Shown here: in pieces, positions 12,082 through 56,286 of the stretch
Layout: each line of letters begins with the position of its first letter
Position numbering within the stretch: the stretch's first letter is position 1
DNA from: an uncultured Desulfobacteraceae bacterium
GTDB lineage: Bacteria; Desulfobacterota; DSM-4660; Desulfatiglandales; HGW-15
DNA length: 64,000 nt
Direction of reading: 5' to 3'
Assembly: GCA_964459445.1 (NCBI GenBank)
Contig: CAYWMP010000004.1
Span: 14,469-78,468 of the forward strand
Position numbers and translations under genes: made by a program
The notes under the pieces: generated by a model
Seen by the model: the letters and a program-made list of their open reading frames with translations, nothing else
What the model was told of the DNA's origin: nothing
Database searches by the model: none

Positions 12082-12368
12082 GGTTCAAGGTTGGACGGTT
12101 CAAAGTTCAAGGTTAAAGAAAAACAAAAATCGACTTGTTTCAAAATTTTAGTGATCTTTCAAATTGATGGTCATTGATGCTATTTATTGGCGCATAATCT
12201 GTTTCGAGCATTAAGAAAAAGGTATCCCCCCGTTCAAAGATGTCGCTTGCGCTGAGATGATAAAACCCTCGTATCTGACTAAGCAACGCTGGAGTCAGTT
12301 TTTTGATCAAACTGGCCGCTTAGGCGGCCAGAGGCGGCGCTGAACCTTGAACGCTGAACCTTATAACC
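12082..12368. repeat. Stutter-word inverted arms (ggttcaagg / ccttgaacc words) enclosing a ~220-bp interior
   Basis: Left arm 12082-12115 (ggttcaaggttggacggttcaaagttcaaggtt) is imperfectly complementary to right arm 12340-12368 (ctgaaccttgaacgctgaaccttataacc). Confidence 0.55.
12267..12345 (+). repeat. 79-bp perfect repeat, copy 1 (two terminator-like hairpins)
   Basis: Identical to 46914-46992. Hairpin CTGACT-N12-AGTCAG plus T6 at 12275-12304; hairpin CTGGCCGC-TTAG-GCGGCCAG at 12312-12331. Confidence 0.9.
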
Positions 12369-21697: not shown

Positions 21698-21806
21698 GAT
21701 GCTGGTTTCTGGATGCTGGTCGAAGATTCCGTCTTTAGCGGAGATGTCGCAAGTAACGGTTCTTTTTTTGGTTTTATCCAGTATCGAGCATCGAGCAACC
21801 AGTATC
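21698..21806. repeat. Stutter-word hairpin (gatgctgg words)
   Basis: 21698-21719 pairs with 21785-21806: 18 Watson-Crick, 1 G-U and 3 mismatches over 22 positions, with a ~65-nt loop. Confidence 0.6.
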
Positions 21807-34344: not shown

Positions 34345-34360
34345 GGGCTTCGCCCCAATT

Positions 34361-34510
34361 GGAATGTTGGATGACTGGAATGATGGAAAAATGGGTTCAG
34401 GGAAAATGGGCAAATAGGTAGCTGGTTGAATTACTATGGATAAGGAAGTCATAAGCATTAAAAAGGGCATACTTCCTTAAAAAACCATCATTCCATTATT
34501 CCACCATTCC
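34361..34510. repeat. Stutter-word hairpin (ggaatg/cattcc words) inside the fdh-nuoF operon
   Basis: 34361-34386 pairs with 34485-34510 (22 of 26 positions; a perfect 10-bp core at 34377-34386/34485-34494). Inner 8-bp hairpin at 34442-34449/34471-34478. Confidence 0.7.
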
Positions 34511-34594
34511 ATAATTCCATGTTTGAGGCAAAAACACTTGGCCTCGTTAATTGCTTATAAGTTCAAAAAGTTGCAGAAATAGCGAGACGGTTAA

Positions 34595-40192: not shown

Positions 40193-40277
40193 ACCTTCCG
40201 CTACATGAATCAGGACAAACAGGCGCTATCTTGAATTGGATAGCGTAAATGTGAACGGTATAAAAGGAAGTGGAAGG

Positions 40278-40447
40278 AAATACGAATATCGAAATTCGAA
40301 ACCCGAAACAATATCGAAAAAGAAATGTTTAAAATCCAAAACAAACGGATTAATCCAATATAGTCTAGAAGAGCTTGCATGTTTTGGCCATTTAGAATTG
40401 GATCATTGGTATTTGTTTCGTATTTCGAGTTTCGAATTTCGGATTTG
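40278..40447. repeat. Stutter-word hairpin (cgaaat/atttcg words) between the cytochrome c gene and rnfC
   Basis: Perfect 13-bp core 40290-40302 (cgaaattcgaaac) / 40429-40441 (gtttcgaatttcg), with degenerate flanking arms. Confidence 0.7.
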
Positions 40448-46803: not shown

Positions 46804-46913
46804 GGAAGCGAAGCTCCGCCTCAAGTCTTATGCCCACCTTCAGCGACGAAAGTCGTCAAATAATCTATCTTTTTGGTTTCAAGTTTCGGGTTTCAGGAAA
46901 GCAACGGCTGACA

Positions 46914-46992
46914 CCTCGTATCTGACTAAGCAACGCTGGAGTCAGTTTTTTGATCAAACTGGCCGCTTAGGCGGCCAGAGGCGGCGCTGAAC
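46914..46992 (+). repeat. 79-bp perfect repeat, copy 2, between convergent rnfB and rseC-like genes
   Basis: Identical to 12267-12345. Hairpin plus T6 at 46922-46951; GC-rich hairpin at 46959-46978. ctgacacct occurs at 46908-46916 and again at 46994-47002. Confidence 0.9.
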
Positions 46993-50954: not shown

Positions 50955-50985
50955 AACCCTTGAACCCTTGAACCCTTGAACCCTG
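50955..50985 (+). repeat. Tandem 8-mer stutter (aacccttg x3 plus degenerate copies) upstream of def
   Basis: aacccttg at 50955, 50963 and 50971, then aaccctg and aacctta. Confidence 0.8.
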
Positions 50986-51006
50986 AACCTTAAACAAGGT
51001 TTTGAC

Positions 51007-51516: not shown

Positions 51517-51619
51517 GCCCCTGGAAGGTAAATTACCCCCAAGGAGCTAAGTTGTTTTACAAAATTCACGGATAAATTTATACCGTGCGGGTTTGTTGTA
51601 AGCTGAACGTTGAACATCG

Positions 51620-51789
51620 AACATTGAACGTCCAACGTCGAATGAAAAATAATCATCCAATATCGAATAATAAAGTGGCATTTCTTCTTGGCCGTTTTGA
51701 TACGTATTCACGAACAACCTTTATTCAGGATCATTAGTCTTTTTCTTTATCTTTTTGAATTCAACATTCGATGTTGGGCGTTCGATGTT
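51620..51789 (+). repeat. Long stutter-word hairpin in the def-fmt spacer (25 contiguous pairs)
   Basis: 51620-51644 pairs with 51765-51789: 22 Watson-Crick plus 3 G-U pairs on the + strand, no mismatches, 120-nt loop. Confidence 0.8.
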
Positions 51790-51856
51790 AATATTTTCGG
51801 GAAACCACCGATCGTCCTTCCATTACAAGATTAGTTCAGTATAACGGCGATTAAAA

Positions 51857-52834: not shown

Positions 52835-52996
52835 ATACGGAAATTGAACCATTCTTGGAAGGCCCGAGCGTATTTTCGGACATATCAATTTAAGTTTCAA
52901 AGTGCATTTGTTTAAGCGGGGGCTCGGGGATCAAAAAGAAATGGCATAAGGCAAAGGGTATGGGGCACAAGGAAGAAATTTTTTGCCTTGAGCCTT

Positions 52997-53022
52997 AGGC
53001 CTTAATCCCTAGGCCTTTTTTT
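52997..53022 (+). terminator. Candidate intrinsic terminator/attenuator after fmt
   Basis: AGGCCT-N8-AGGCCT stem followed by a T7 run. Preceded by a stutter hairpin at 52961-52997. Confidence 0.45.
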
Positions 53023-53032
53023 ATTTGTCCCC

Positions 53033-54445
53033 GTGAAGAGATTGTTGAGTCCCCGCTTATTGAGAAGTTCTAATTGCTGCCATGGATGGATATTGGACAA
53101 GCCACGGGACATAGCACTGAAAGTACTGGATCGGCTGTCATTAAAACAACAGCCAAACGCATACCTTTTGGACGAGGCCCTTGGCAATCAAGATCAATTG
53201 GATGCCAGGGACAGGGGCTTTATTATCCATTTGGTCCAGGGTGTTCAACGCTGGCGGCTTCGGCTCGATTGGATCATCGGGCAGGCCGTTCATTTCCCCC
53301 TAAGAAAGATTACGCCCCGGAATCTAAATATTCTCCGGCTCGCCCTCTATCAAATCTACTTTATGGACAAGGTACCTGAATCCGCCGCAGTCAATGAAGC
53401 AGTGAAACAGGTGAAGGTCCGCGAGTCTAAGCATGTGGTTTCTTTTGTAAATGGGGTTCTCAGAAACATTTGCAGAAACAAGGACGATTTCTCTTTCCCC
53501 GATCCAAAGAAAGATCCTATAGGGTATCTTTCAACCTTCTTTTCATATCCGGAGTGGCTGGTAAAAAAGTGGACAAGAGAACTTGGAAAGGATACCGCAC
53601 AGGACCTTTTGGAGGCGGGAAATAGAGTCCCAAAGCTTATTGTCAGAACGAACACTCTGAAAATCAATCGAACGGCCTTGATAGAGCGGCTCAAACAAGA
53701 AAATGTTGTGGGAATACCAACGCCAAAGGCTCCGGACGGCATCTTCTTGGAAGGACTTAAAGGAAGGATAGACGGTCTAAATACCTTTCGGGAAGGGCTG
53801 CTTCAGGTCCAGGGCCAGGCAACACAACTCATGTCCCATCTCCTGGCGCCCCAACCGAGGGATTCAGTGCTCGACGTATGCGCCGGATTAGGGGGCAAGG
53901 CCGGTCATATGGCAGAACTCATGCAAGGGCGGGGAAATGTTCTCGCCCTTGACATAAGCGCAAGGAGGCTGATAGACCTTGCGAGGAACTCAGAAAGGCT
54001 CGGAATTCATAACATCGATCCGGTTGTAGCAGATGCGGCTTTTGGTCTGTCGTCGCTTATTCGGTGCCGGTTTGATGGAATTATGGTAGATGCACCCTGC
54101 TCGGGGCTTGGAGTCCTTTCTAGGCATCCCGACGGTAAATGGAACCGGGATGTAAAGGACATCAAACGTCTGGCTAGGTTACAGAAGACGATATTGAAGG
54201 GCGCAGCTTCCGTCCTCAAAAAGGGGGGGAGGATGTTGTATGTGACCTGTACGATTTCAAAAGAGGAGAACGAAGAAGTCGTAGAGGACTGCCTTGAGAG
54301 AAACAAGGATCTGGAATCAATAAATCTTGCCTATGACGCCCCTGTTTGGGCTCGGCCTCTTGTCAATAGGGAAGGTTTTTTTCAGTCCTATCCCCATATC
54401 CATGAAATGGACGGCCTTTTTGCAGCGCTGTTTACAAAAAGCTAG
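53033..54445 (+). CDS. rsmB: 16S rRNA (cytosine967-C5)-methyltransferase
   Basis: NusB-like N-terminal region, DVCAGLGGKAG (SAM motif), DAPCSGLGV and TCT. Start is uncertain. Confidence 0.85.
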   Translation: MKRLLSPRLLRSSNCCHGWILDKPRDIALKVLDRLSLKQQPNAYLLDEALGNQDQLDARDRGFIIHLVQGVQRWRLRLDWIIGQAVHFPLRKITPRNLNILRLALYQIYFMDKVPESAAVNEAVKQVKVRESKHVVSFVNGVLRNICRNKDDFSFPDPKKDPIGYLSTFFSYPEWLVKKWTRELGKDTAQDLLEAGNRVPKLIVRTNTLKINRTALIERLKQENVVGIPTPKAPDGIFLEGLKGRIDGLNTFREGLLQVQGQATQLMSHLLAPQPRDSVLDVCAGLGGKAGHMAELMQGRGNVLALDISARRLIDLARNSERLGIHNIDPVVADAAFGLSSLIRCRFDGIMVDAPCSGLGVLSRHPDGKWNRDVKDIKRLARLQKTILKGAASVLKKGGRMLYVTCTISKEENEEVVEDCLERNKDLESINLAYDAPVWARPLVNREGFFQSYPHIHEMDGLFAALFTKS

Positions 54446-54455
54446 CATAGAGCAA

Positions 54456-54476
54456 GGAGCATGGAGCATGGAGCAT
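54456..54476 (+). repeat. Tandem 7-mer stutter (ggagcat x3) in the rsmB-rpe spacer
   Basis: ggagcat at 54456, 54463 and 54470, then ggagcaa. A second word series taatggctaatgaccaatgactaat lies at about 54528-54552. Confidence 0.8.
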
Positions 54477-54565
54477 GGAGCAAAGAAAGGTTTTTTGATT
54501 CAGCCCGAGCATCCAAACCACAAATGTCTAATGGCTAATGACCAATGACTAATACGGAGAAGAAT

Positions 54566-55219: not shown

Positions 55220-55323
55220 AAACCCTTTGACTCCTTAGTGAGGAAGTATTAATATCCACTTTTTTGTAGCATGCTACTAGCAACAAGCTAATAGCAACCA
55301 GTAAATCGCTGTGGCGATTTCCC

Positions 55324-55411
55324 GGAGGGATGGCCGAGTGGTTGAAGGCGGCGGTCTTGAAAACCGTTGTCCCGAAAGGGACCGTGGGTTCGAATCCTAC
55401 TCCCTCCGCCA
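55324..55411 (+). tRNA. tRNA-Ser (anticodon UGA), CCA encoded
   Basis: Acceptor GGAGGGA/TCCCTCC, anticodon loop CTTGAAA, long variable arm GTCCC-GAAA-GGGAC, T loop TTCGAAT. Confidence 0.9.
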
Positions 55412-55438
55412 AGAAATCCAGTTTTACAGGATTTCACT

Positions 55439-55889
55439 TGTGGCTAGTAGCTTTTGGCATTTAACTGAGTGGAATTGTGGTTATTAGGGTAGCAATTGAA
55501 GCGCTTCAGATTCAAAGAGTTTCGCGTCTATCAAGATGCCAAAGAATACTGCAAGTACTGCCGCGATATTGTAAAAAGGCATATAGAGAAAAAGGATAAG
55601 GGTCTTTCTGATCAGCTAGGAAGGGCGCTCAATTCTATTGTTCTTAATATAGCAGAGGGATCAGGTGATAATTCCGACGCCGAATTCGCGAGGTTTCTAG
55701 GAATCTCAATTCGGTCTGTCTACGAAACTGTTGCTGGTTTTGATCTAGCCACACTTTATGAACTCATAGACAATAATCTGAATGATGATATTGAAGAAAG
55801 GGCTCACAAGCTAGTAAAGCAACTCGTATCATTCAGAAAAAAGCTGAAGGAATAAATTGTAAGCTACTGGCCGAGGGCCAATAGCCACA
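55439..55889 (+). repeat. Hairpin cassette enclosing the four-helix-bundle gene
   Basis: tgtggcta 55439-55446 pairs with tagccaca 55882-55889. gtagctt 55447-55453 pairs with aagctac 55861-55867. The bulge 55868-55881 folds as TGGCC-GAGG-GCCA(A). Confidence 0.65.
55496..55855 (+). CDS. Four-helix-bundle protein (23S rRNA intervening-sequence protein / Avd-like family)
   Basis: FKEFRVYQDAKEY.., ..ALNSIVLNIAEGSG..., FARFLGISIRSVYET match the family pattern. TTG start. Confidence 0.75.
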   Translation: MKRFRFKEFRVYQDAKEYCKYCRDIVKRHIEKKDKGLSDQLGRALNSIVLNIAEGSGDNSDAEFARFLGISIRSVYETVAGFDLATLYELIDNNLNDDIEERAHKLVKQLVSFRKKLKE

Positions 55890-56017
55890 GGTGGCCTATA
55901 GCTTATGGCATGTGGCTTAAAGGGGAATAGGAGCAAGTCAATTAGAGATTAGACAGCGAAAAAAAAGCTACTGGCTAATAGCCAATAGCTACCAGTGTTT
56001 CGCATCAGCGAAACCGC

Positions 56018-56110
56018 GGAGAGATGGCCGAGTTGGCTGAAGGCGCTCGCCTGCTAAGCGAGTGTAGGGCGAAAGTTCTACCGAGGGTTCGAATCCCTCT
56101 CTCTCCGCCA
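56018..56110 (+). tRNA. tRNA-Ser (anticodon GCU), CCA encoded
   Basis: Acceptor GGAGAGA/TCTCTCC, anticodon stem CTCGC/GCGAG with loop CTGCTAA, long variable arm, T loop TTCGAAT. Confidence 0.9.
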
Positions 56111-56122
56111 TTTCAATAACTT

Positions 56123-56146
56123 AGGCGGCGTAAAGTCGCCTTTTTT
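56123..56146 (+). terminator. Intrinsic terminator after tRNA-Ser(GCU)
   Basis: AGGCGG-N7-TCGCCT stem followed by T6. Confidence 0.6.
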
Positions 56147-56286
56147 ATTTAGGGACAGGGATTGTCTACTGAAGATTGATGAGTTGAGTTATTGAGTTGA
56201 TAACAACTCTTTTTTTCCAAGGAAGCAGCGAAGAGTGTTGCAGAGGTGAAGGAGCAAACGGGGCGGCCGAAACCTCATTGGAGAAG

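Follow-up and report, generated by a model that had tools for sequence, protein, structure and literature searches.

A four-helix-bundle gene between two serine tRNA genes

We analysed a 64,000-nt stretch of DNA (hereafter the window; coordinates count from its first letter) from contig CAYWMP010000004.1 of an uncultured Desulfobacteraceae bacterium. In it, a gene for a 119-aa four-helix-bundle protein, a member of the family named after the intervening sequences (IVSs) of 23S rRNA, lies in the 606-nt spacer (55412-56017) between tRNA-Ser(UGA) and tRNA-Ser(GCU). The gene is enclosed by mirror-image arrays of 7-nt (heptad) words and by two hairpins, hp1 and hp2, that abut the tRNA genes; we refer to the whole as the cassette. 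The features of the locus, with the open reading frame (ORF) of the gene among them, are as follows.

55227..55255, + strand: sigma-70-like promoter candidate on the 5' side of the tRNA unit (TTGACT, 17 nt, TAATAT), called by consensus match alone
55262..55302, + strand: leader word array of the armB type (GTAGCATGCTACTAGCAACAAGCTAATAGCAACCAGT), called as a word cluster
55303..55320, + strand: hp2-type hairpin (AAATCGC TGTG GCGATTT), 3 nt 5' of tRNA1, present in the minimum free energy (MFE) structure
55324..55411, + strand: tRNA-Ser(UGA), hereafter tRNA1 (ARAGORN; Rfam RF00005, 60.2 bits)
55413..55435, + strand: hairpin hp1 (GAAATCC AGTTTTAC AGGATTTC), beginning 1 nt past the CCA end, present in the MFE structure
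55436..55465, + strand: armA, an AC anchor followed by heptad words (ACTTGTGGCTAGTAGCTTTTGGCATTTAAC), from a 48-locus anchored comparison and the period-7 signal
55486..55489, + strand: Shine-Dalgarno-like AGGG, 6 nt 5' of the TTG start, read from the sequence
55496..55855, + strand: four-helix-bundle gene, 119 aa, TTG start, PF05635/TIGR02436, from profile matches and purifying selection
55861..55893, + strand: armB', mirror word array right behind the stop codon (AAGCTACTGGCCGAGGGCCAATAGCCACAGGTG), from repeat pairs and sequence
55886..55918, + strand: armA', second armA-type array (CACAGGTGGCCTATAGCTTATGGCATGTGGCTT) and start of an ORF-less hairpin, a direct repeat of armA (77%)
55967..55996, + strand: armB, mirror heptad words with a GT anchor at the end (GCTACTGGCTAATAGCCAATAGCTACCAGT), its register beside hp2 conserved
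55997..56014, + strand: hairpin hp2 (GTTTCGC ATCA GCGAAAC), 3 nt 5' of tRNA2, present in the MFE structure
56018..56110, + strand: tRNA-Ser(GCU), hereafter tRNA2 (ARAGORN; Rfam 60.7 bits)
56123..56146, + strand: intrinsic terminator (AGGCGGCGTAAAGTCGCCT, then a T-run), from terminator prediction

The two tRNA genes and their spacer appear to form a single transcription unit, as an earlier sequence-only reading of this DNA had proposed: a promoter-like site stands upstream, an intrinsic terminator stands downstream, and no + strand terminator was found between the promoter at 55227-55255 and the terminator at 56123-56146. Near-identical TTGACTCC...TATATT motifs occupy the place of the promoter in the syntenic loci L087, L089, L104, L108 and L153. 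The same reading had placed the gene within complementary arms, and this was exact: the reverse complement of TGTGGCTAGTAGCTT (55439-55453, contained in armA) is AAGCTAC (55861-55867) plus TAGCCACA (55882-55889), both pieces lie in armB', and the 14 nt between them form a mini-hairpin. The conserved hairpins hp1 and hp2 had escaped it. Because extra armB' and armA' arrays follow the stop codon and armA' pairs with armB in the local fold, the spacer can be read as two cassettes in a row, the first occupied and the second empty. The leader array (55262..55302) resembles the tRNA2 leader (73% over 67 nt) and is probably the remnant of a former upstream cassette. An Rfam scan of the spacer returned no family, and its weak matches overlapped the tRNAs.

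The protein and its selection

Profile searches placed the protein where the sequence-only reading had put it, in the 23S-IVS/Avd-like four-helix-bundle family. It scored 76.9 bits against PF05635 ('23S rRNA-intervening sequence protein'), whose cut-off is 33.8 (E 1.7e-21), and 80 bits against TIGR02436 ('four helix bundle protein'), whose cut-off is 24 (E 1.4e-22). Its fold agrees with this assignment. The AlphaFold model, built with 36 homologues, has a mean predicted local distance difference test score (pLDDT) of 93.1 and helices at residues 10-30, 35-56, 61-87 and 93-118. Foldseek matched the model to the Protein Data Bank (PDB) structures of XCC0516 (2gsc; template modelling [TM] score 0.86-0.90) and BT_0352 (2rld; TM 0.76-0.88), and to Avd, a protein of diversity-generating retroelements (DGRs; 4dwl and 8ub7 among the matches), with TM 0.72-0.85 at a sequence identity of 8-11%. 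A PDB search by sequence only returned 2gsc as its sole match. By homology to XCC0516, BT_0352 and Avd, the protein is probably a pentameric nucleic-acid-binding bundle.

Among the homologues, dN is 0.15-0.2 and dS is saturated, with a median dN/dS of 0.075 over the 11 computable pairs; since the gene is under purifying selection, we infer that the protein is made and functional. A protein search retrieved 525 close relatives, the best 120 of which are 70-87% identical and nearly all metagenomic. HMMER against 1.84 billion representatives found 1,860 family members, with only about nine clusters at least 59% identical to the window protein, so the tRNA-linked group is a tight subfamily. No second PF05635-family member is encoded in the window. 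A defence-system or phage origin was considered and rejected, as PADLOC returned HamA alone (E 0.003, 14.8 bits), PHROGs nothing and IMG/VR no relatives. A specific link to serine or selenocysteine was also sought, and nothing spoke in its favour.

A conserved module of serine tRNA spacers

The sequence-only reading had raised the question whether, in related strains, the two tRNA genes adjoin without the insert. We fetched 86 loci, mapped the tRNAs and the gene in each, and found a conserved module instead: in all 65 metagenomic loci with both flanks, the gene (65-87% identity) lies between two tRNA-Ser genes of the same strand. The tRNA pairs are UGA>GCU (38 loci), CGA>GGA (20), CGA>GCU (5), UGA>GGA (1) and GGA>UGA (1). 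Where one flank was cut off (20 loci), a tRNA was present on the remaining side in every case; L123 has a tRNA-Ser 3' remnant beside an integrase, and the sequence of L084 is too short to judge. Neighbouring protein genes vary among the loci checked (MoeA, DUF1015/DnaX, NiFe hydrogenase, Rpe). In a neighbour-joining tree of the proteins the tRNA-pair types are mixed, which argues that the cassette has moved among tRNA-Ser spacers. An insert-free allele was sought in the organism's own metagenomes, where the contigs at the organism's depth carry the insert; apparent 'skips' of it proved to be other organisms' tRNA-Ser genes aligning to both tRNAs. Relatives sought through the upstream rpe gene were uninformative, the best being 70% identical and the order rpe then tRNA-Ser not being conserved.

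Several genomes group their tRNA genes as Ser-Ser-Arg-Ser-Ser (L088, L099, L110), and ORF-less spacers of like design occur both between serine tRNA genes (L088, L099, L110) and between a serine and an arginine tRNA gene (L134). Three syntenic loci, L089, L091 and L109 (L089, the one checked for it, has Rpe upstream), carry a whole second cassette with a decayed gene at the place of the tRNA1 leader. In L089 (1150-1490) it consists of hp1, array, pseudogene, array and hp2, the pseudogene has an in-frame stop and an internal deletion, and the intact cassette lies downstream. Arrays and hairpins stand behind tRNA2 only if another tRNA comes next, and most leaders directly behind a promoter are without them, the window being one exception.

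The comparison also brought to light several variants of the spacers. In L081 (3639-4003) and L112, the unit of hp1 plus array is repeated in tandem, and three to four such units, each about 100 nt long, separate tRNA1 from the ORF; modules thus duplicate as units there. An element of about 70 nt stands just 3' of tRNA-Ser in L094, L096, L099, L103, L110, L149, L163 and L164. It consists of a hairpin TCATTTTTGC..GCAAAAATGA and then GGCGAGATCTCGCC..GGCGGATCCGCCAG; it ends in ..GCCA, followed by hp1, in at least L094, L096, L099, L110, L163 and L164, and its 3' end resembles a tRNA acceptor/T-arm mimic. In L160 (about 324-600), the tRNA is separated from hp1 by about 180 nt of structured sequence together with a second copy of the tRNA-Ser 3' end, and in L123 (2600-3000) a tyrosine-integrase gene abuts the tRNA-Ser 3' remnant. 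Judged from their sequences, both look like integration events at the tRNA beside the cassette.

Cassette anatomy and complementarity of the arms

Comparison of 60 non-identical units revealed a common order: the CCA of tRNA1, 1 nt, hp1, AC plus about four words, the ORF, mirror words plus GT, hp2, about 3 nt and tRNA2. Both hairpins were present in 55 of the 60 units, and 48 of those had the AC and GT anchors as well. hp1 is usually GAAAWTT..AAWTTTC; its outer stem occurs in 22 distinct sequences with pairing kept, and that of hp2 in 28 across the surveyed loci. The upstream words are nnnTRGC in the lineage of the window and nnnT(T/G)AAC in others, and the mirror words are GCYAnnn or GTTAnnn. 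In the minimal loci L096, L110, L144 and L149, the array runs up to the start codon itself.

That the arrays are mirror-symmetric is certain. The arms of the subfamily carry a period-7 signal, and in the anchored register 18.3 of 30 positions pair, compared with 12.1 ± 2.6 in shuffles. A MAFFT alignment of the arms introduced gaps; pairs were counted in a fixed register with its own controls. The word type switches jointly in both arms (TRGC/GCYA in 30 loci, TRAC/GTYA in 21, discordant in 4; Spearman 0.74, p 1.6e-11), the central position changing from G-C to A-T between lineages. Within the window, the arm 55439-55453 complements not only armB' but also the leader at 55273-55287 (15 nt, 93%) and the segment 55975-55997 before tRNA2 (19/23, counted by hand); of these pairings, the last is the one whose register other loci conserve. 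For the whole unit, RNAfold gave z = -5 and folded both tRNAs, hp1 and hp2. It is plausible that the arrays operate as an RNA helix.

Heptamer arrays around distant family members

The nearest out-group protein, 59% identical, belongs to a Candidatus Microgenomates genome, in which the gene lies between tRNA-Arg(UCU) and tRNA-His(GUG). This cassette has the same design of hp1, AC, TAGC words, ORF, GCTA words, GT and hp2, and the other spacers of that tRNA cluster are without it. In the same cluster (Arg-His-Leu-Pro-Gly; L167, 3437-3810), an 82-aa GIY-YIG ORF, a second small and possibly selfish gene between tRNAs, lies between tRNA-Pro and tRNA-Gly.

Other, more distant members from Patescibacteria (40-50% identity) lie beside tRNA-Trp or are inserted between PGK and RNase T, between type II secretion system (T2SS) E and F or between DUF378 and rpoD, and most of them have (nnTTRAC)n upstream and (GTYAAnn)n downstream. 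Four genes on cyanobacterial plasmids (29-37% identity) are sited between nrdB and nrdA, between secretion genes, between cas6 and cas4 and behind a TraM-domain gene. All four have tandem heptamers on their flanks, and in three of them the arrays are inverted. Examples are (AGTAGGG)x7.9 with (TCCCTAC)x4.9 and (AGGGAAC)x3.9 with (CTGTTCC)x7.4, and in two Nostoc loci the consensus units are perfectly complementary (AGTAGGG/TCCCTAC and AGGGAAC/CTGTTCC). In a Pseudanabaena galeata plasmid (L183, 955-1654), where the gene lies between cas6 and cas4, the arrays are very long: (GCTTTTA)x11, (AAAAGCT)x15.6 and (AAAAGCC)x14. Those beside the gene are direct, and their words share the TAGC/GCTA type with those of the window. 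Two more lineages fit the pattern, with a gene of Omnitrophica that lies between two heptosyltransferase genes and with L186, whose arrays have 12, 21 and 16 copies.

Altogether, 13 distant loci from Patescibacteria, Cyanobacteria and Omnitrophica were scanned with Tandem Repeats Finder (TRF). Period-7 arrays lie within 150 nt on both sides of the gene in 10 of the 13, mostly inverted, and in the first 11 of the 13 loci the flanks hold 5.15 arrays per kb, compared with 0.40 per kb in the remaining sequence. The arms in the window itself are so degenerate that TRF does not call them, yet they are visibly phased at 7 nt. The idea of the sequence-only reading that other family members might carry their own flanking word arrays was thus confirmed for most distant loci, and these data indicate that the arrays belong to the gene family rather than to tRNA spacers. 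In L177 (4067-4387), a 1147-aa protein whose N-terminus matches PF05635 starts just past an AGCGGTT x3.3 array, which suggests a fused form of the bundle domain.

Surroundings and other inverted arrays in the window

Upstream of the tRNA unit lie genes for RsmB and Rpe, and downstream, on the opposite strand, genes for an S-adenosylmethionine (SAM) methyltransferase and an AAA_14/DUF4143 ATPase. The gene calls out to about 2.5 kb in both directions include no reverse transcriptase and no integrase, and the window holds no rRNA. Every period-7/8 array of the window with 2.5 copies or more lies in non-coding sequence, and most of these arrays form inverted pairs, as follows.

12098-12118 with 12338-12359: inverted array pair
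21700-21720 with 21775-21806: inverted array pair
34360-34388 with 34485-34520: inverted array pair
40277-40301 with 40416-40446: inverted array pair
51605-51642 with about 51765-51795: inverted array pair
52940-52975 with 52992-53017: inverted array pair, in a region to 53030 that ends in a terminator-like T-run
54444-54482 with 54523-54553: inverted array pair
46875-46897 and 50955-50989: further arrays of period 7 or 8

Each pair has its own word (e.g., AGCATGG, GCCTTAG, GAACATC, TGGAATGA, TTTCGAA), and clusters of gctac/tagcc-type words occur in the window at the tRNA-Ser locus only. The hairpin cassettes that the sequence-only reading had seen elsewhere in the window therefore exist as intergenic inverted arrays, built from other words. 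Their loops of 12-220 nt hold no ORF, the fold z scores range from -1.3 to -4.5, and no gene remnant was found in any of the seven ORF-less pairs. The claim that the tRNA-Ser locus is the one occupied cassette of the window is correct, because none of the other arrays holds a gene remnant.

A 46-nt repeat (TTTTTGATCAAACTGGCCGCTTAGGCGGCCAGAGGCGGCGCTGAAC) is identical at 12300-12345 and 46947-46992, where none is expected by chance, and the likeness reaches about 35 nt further upstream. The copy at 12300 lies within a heptad-array cassette and runs into GCTGAAC-type words, with the look of a miniature inverted-repeat transposable element (MITE); that at 46947 is preceded, at a distance of about 50 nt, by a lone heptad array.

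Interpretation of the cassette

With slightly better than even confidence, we interpret the locus as an IVS-like cassette, insulated by hairpins, within a tRNA operon. It would share a transcript with the tRNAs and be set free by tRNA processing, by cleavage of double-stranded RNA (dsRNA) or by both. One precursor would run from the promoter (55227-55255) to the terminator (56123-56146). RNase P cutting at tRNA2, together with 3' processing of tRNA1, would free the middle piece, as in tRNA punctuation, and the terminal hairpins would protect the ends of the freed hp1...hp2 mRNA, a role suggested by their fixed distances (hp1 1 nt past CCA, hp2 3 nt before tRNA2). The mirror arrays would pair, loop the ORF out and offer a double-stranded target of the RNase III type, and the tRNAs would mature normally; a dsRNA cleavage site in the arrays is plausible by analogy with the RNase III excision of 23S IVSs. 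In this interpretation the cassette is heritable as a unit and has moved between tRNA-Ser spacers and into another phylum, with ORF-less versions persisting as spacer or intergenic hairpins.

A number of observations weigh against this interpretation, most of them concerning the arms. Pairing in the subfamily is limited to four or five of every seven positions, which would make a weak helix. Complementarity at shifts of +7 and -7 is as high as at 0, and cognate arms pair no better (0.626) than non-cognate arms of the same word type (0.649), because the arms are arrays of a quasi-palindromic heptad word. At the R:Y position there is no within-locus covariation (38 observed, 37.75 expected). Mismatches of the G.U type show no clear excess over those of the A.C type in the subfamily (136 versus 107) or in the distant loci (50 versus 33, p 0.08), so these data do not establish that selection acts on the RNA. 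As proof of an RNA stem, covariation specific to the locus and an excess of G.U were accordingly dropped, the results being null or weak. Thus, of the stem proposed by the sequence-only reading, the complementarity stood and the locus specificity did not: arm complementarity is generic to the word class. RNAfold moreover pairs armA with the leader array, an alternative to the stem enclosing the ORF, and pairs 55465-55493, which includes the Shine-Dalgarno-like sequence, with armB, thereby sequestering it. The model does not account for the heptad periodicity of the arrays. Two cyanobacterial loci have the gene antisense to the genes on either side, so riding a host transcript is not universal. 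A search for RNA runs holding the locus returned one metatranscriptome, with 3% of the sampled words, and none for L094; no RNA run contained the locus, and co-transcription, the sites of processing and translation are therefore inferences.

Much of this generic, word-level complementarity would also suit a mobile cassette acting at the DNA level, in which the arrays would be cruciforms or recombination/binding-site arrays for insertion, excision or copying, RNA pairing would be irrelevant, and the arms would co-evolve by slippage and quasi-palindrome templated repair. This accords with complementarity at the level of the word class and without a G.U excess, with the recurrence of arms and hairpins in a different phylum between different tRNAs, with the intermixed tRNA-pair types on the protein tree and with members wedged among unrelated operon genes in both orientations. 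The tandem duplications of hp1 plus array (L081, L112), the decayed second cassette (L089) and the ORF-less copies, which recall MITEs, point the same way. We nevertheless think it unlikely. The cassette encodes no recombinase or nuclease, and we know of no 119-aa helical bundle that acts as either; no target-site duplications were seen; and the subfamily has kept its position while synonymous divergence reached saturation, which speaks against frequent movement. The fixed distances of 1 nt and 3 nt between hp1 or hp2 and the tRNAs look, moreover, like a constraint of RNA processing.

If the protein is a pentamer, the arrays could instead be its phased binding sites in RNA or DNA, through which it would autoregulate translation or mRNA stability or build a ribonucleoprotein (RNP), much as TRAP binds phased triplets, here with a pentamer on three to five heptad words. 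The typical number of about four words per subfamily arm, the conservation of the word sequence (T, C, central G/A) beyond the needs of pairing, and the arrays that end at the start codon in the minimal loci L096, L110, L144 and L149 would fit such a role. Avd binds nucleic acid in the DGR RNP, and the Avd-DGR RNP structure 8ub7 is among the fold matches. TAACTGA repeats likewise end 1 nt before start codons, and a binding factor for them has been sought (PMC4679880). Although word type follows protein clades, it also tracks host phylogeny, and protein-word co-evolution is thus not shown. In addition, one protein cannot fit all arrays of the window, where at least seven ORF-less arrays each have their own word and there is one family gene in 64 kb; copy numbers range from 3 to more than 20; and binding to single-stranded RNA would leave the mirror-image arms unexplained. 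We consider this role quite improbable. A role of the protein specific to tRNA-Ser (maturation, modification, protection or use), with co-regulation in the operon and incidental arrays, would explain the strict and old linkage to all four tRNA-Ser isoacceptor types in Desulfobacterota as well as the strong purifying selection. It is very improbable, given that the closest out-group lies between tRNA-Arg and tRNA-His, that others lie by tRNA-Trp or between protein genes and that the family at large occurs in rRNA, tRNA and protein operons alike; since tRNA-Ser genes cluster and share spacer modules, local hopping explains the linkage. Finally, the TTG start and the shortness of the individual inverted repeats might suggest a chance ORF or annotation artefact with fortuitous repeats. 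Profile scores far over the cut-offs, the 525 close homologues, the conserved position and anatomy and a dN/dS far below 1 refute this to near certainty.

Beyond the co-transcribed cassette of the tRNA operon, we tentatively suggest a wider and rather doubtful generalization, in which PF05635/Avd-like genes and inverted heptamer arrays would make up one class of element. Autonomous forms (array-ORF-array) would have colonised 23S rRNA, tRNA and protein operons, ORF-less heptamer hairpins, including the short tandemly repeated repetitive (STRR) and TAACTGA-type sequences, would be non-autonomous derivatives or landing pads, and the pentamer would act on the array in RNA or DNA. The function of the IVS protein and the origin of heptamer repeats have been open questions for about 30 years; were this true, it would supply a function for the one and an origin for the other. 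On the favoured interpretation, the habit of the family of residing in a hairpin within a stable-RNA precursor extends to tRNA operons. There the gene has long been kept under purifying selection, and mirror-image heptamer arrays stand beside the gene in nearly every phylum sampled. In annotation, such cassettes may be hidden in what are described as long tRNA-operon 'spacers' or 'structured intergenic regions'.

Comparison with known systems

The closest parallel is the 23S IVS with an ORF of the PF05635 family, known from Leptospira and from Coxiella burnetii (S23p), which has complementary ends and is cut by RNase III (PMC4990558). Both systems place a PF05635 ORF between complementary ends and within a stable-RNA transcription unit (a presumed one in the window), and both have ORF-less versions. 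They differ in that the 23S IVS sits in a 23S helix and has a near-perfect 28-bp stem, whereas the window cassette sits in a tRNA-operon spacer and has phased heptad-word arrays plus two extra hairpins abutting the tRNAs. The Coxiella ORF is reported as decaying and untranslated (PMC4990558), whereas that of the window is intact and under purifying selection; the distribution of 23S IVSs is sporadic, whereas the cassette is conserved. RNase III cleavage has been shown for the 23S IVS and is a prediction for the window cassette. Avd of DGRs (4dwl, 8ub7) has the same fold as the window protein, and Pfam and CDD group it with the PF05635 family (PMC10053308). No reverse transcriptase was among the genes called within about 2.5 kb of the cassette; template and variable repeats were not searched for.

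The TAACTGA-type heptamer direct repeats of Beggiatoaceae, Cyanobacteria and Bacteroidetes (MacGregor 2015, PMC4679880) share with the cassette arrays a tandem 7-nt period, an intergenic location, frequent ends at a start codon and lineage-specific words. L177 bears AACTGAC-type words like those of the TAACTGA repeats. Cyanobacteria and Bacteroidetes are also, as far as is known, the phyla richest in the four-helix-bundle family, and the same features are found in the STRR heptamers of cyanobacteria, reportedly described by Mazel in 1990 and Vioque in 1997. The TAACTGA repeats have been treated as direct repeats, and PMC4679880 makes no mention of the PF05635 family or of mirror pairing around an ORF. 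Compared with both kinds of repeat, the arrays of the window subfamily are short (three to four words) and degenerate.

In mitochondrial polycistronic transcripts, tRNAs punctuate the RNA, and an mRNA directly between tRNAs could likewise be freed here by RNase P and 3' processing; the window has a bacterial operon with extra terminal hairpins and arrays, and the likeness is one of working, not of membership. With integron cassettes and their attC sites, and with MITEs and repetitive extragenic palindromic (REP) elements, the cassette shares a small promoter-less ORF with an imperfect inverted repeat and many ORF-less hairpins. TAAC/GTTA words recall attC core sites, but the words of the window are TAGC/GCTA, and attC has two core sites whereas each arm of the cassette, before and after the ORF, is made up of at least four phased words. 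No integrase lies beside the window cassette; L086 and L123 have tyrosine integrases at tRNA genes, and integrases are common at tRNA loci. A likeness of the TAAC/CTTTAAC words to attC and to rrn boxA was considered and rejected on account of the TAGC words used in the lineage of the window, the four phased words per arm and the lack of an adjacent integrase.

A full-text literature search, incomplete in coverage, so that prior notice elsewhere is possible, found no paper linking the PF05635 family to tRNA operons or heptamer arrays. ORF-bearing 23S IVSs, Avd and heptamer repeats were each known separately; we take the probable IVS-like cassette in a tRNA operon to be new, and the family-wide regularity of flanking heptamer arrays may be new as well.

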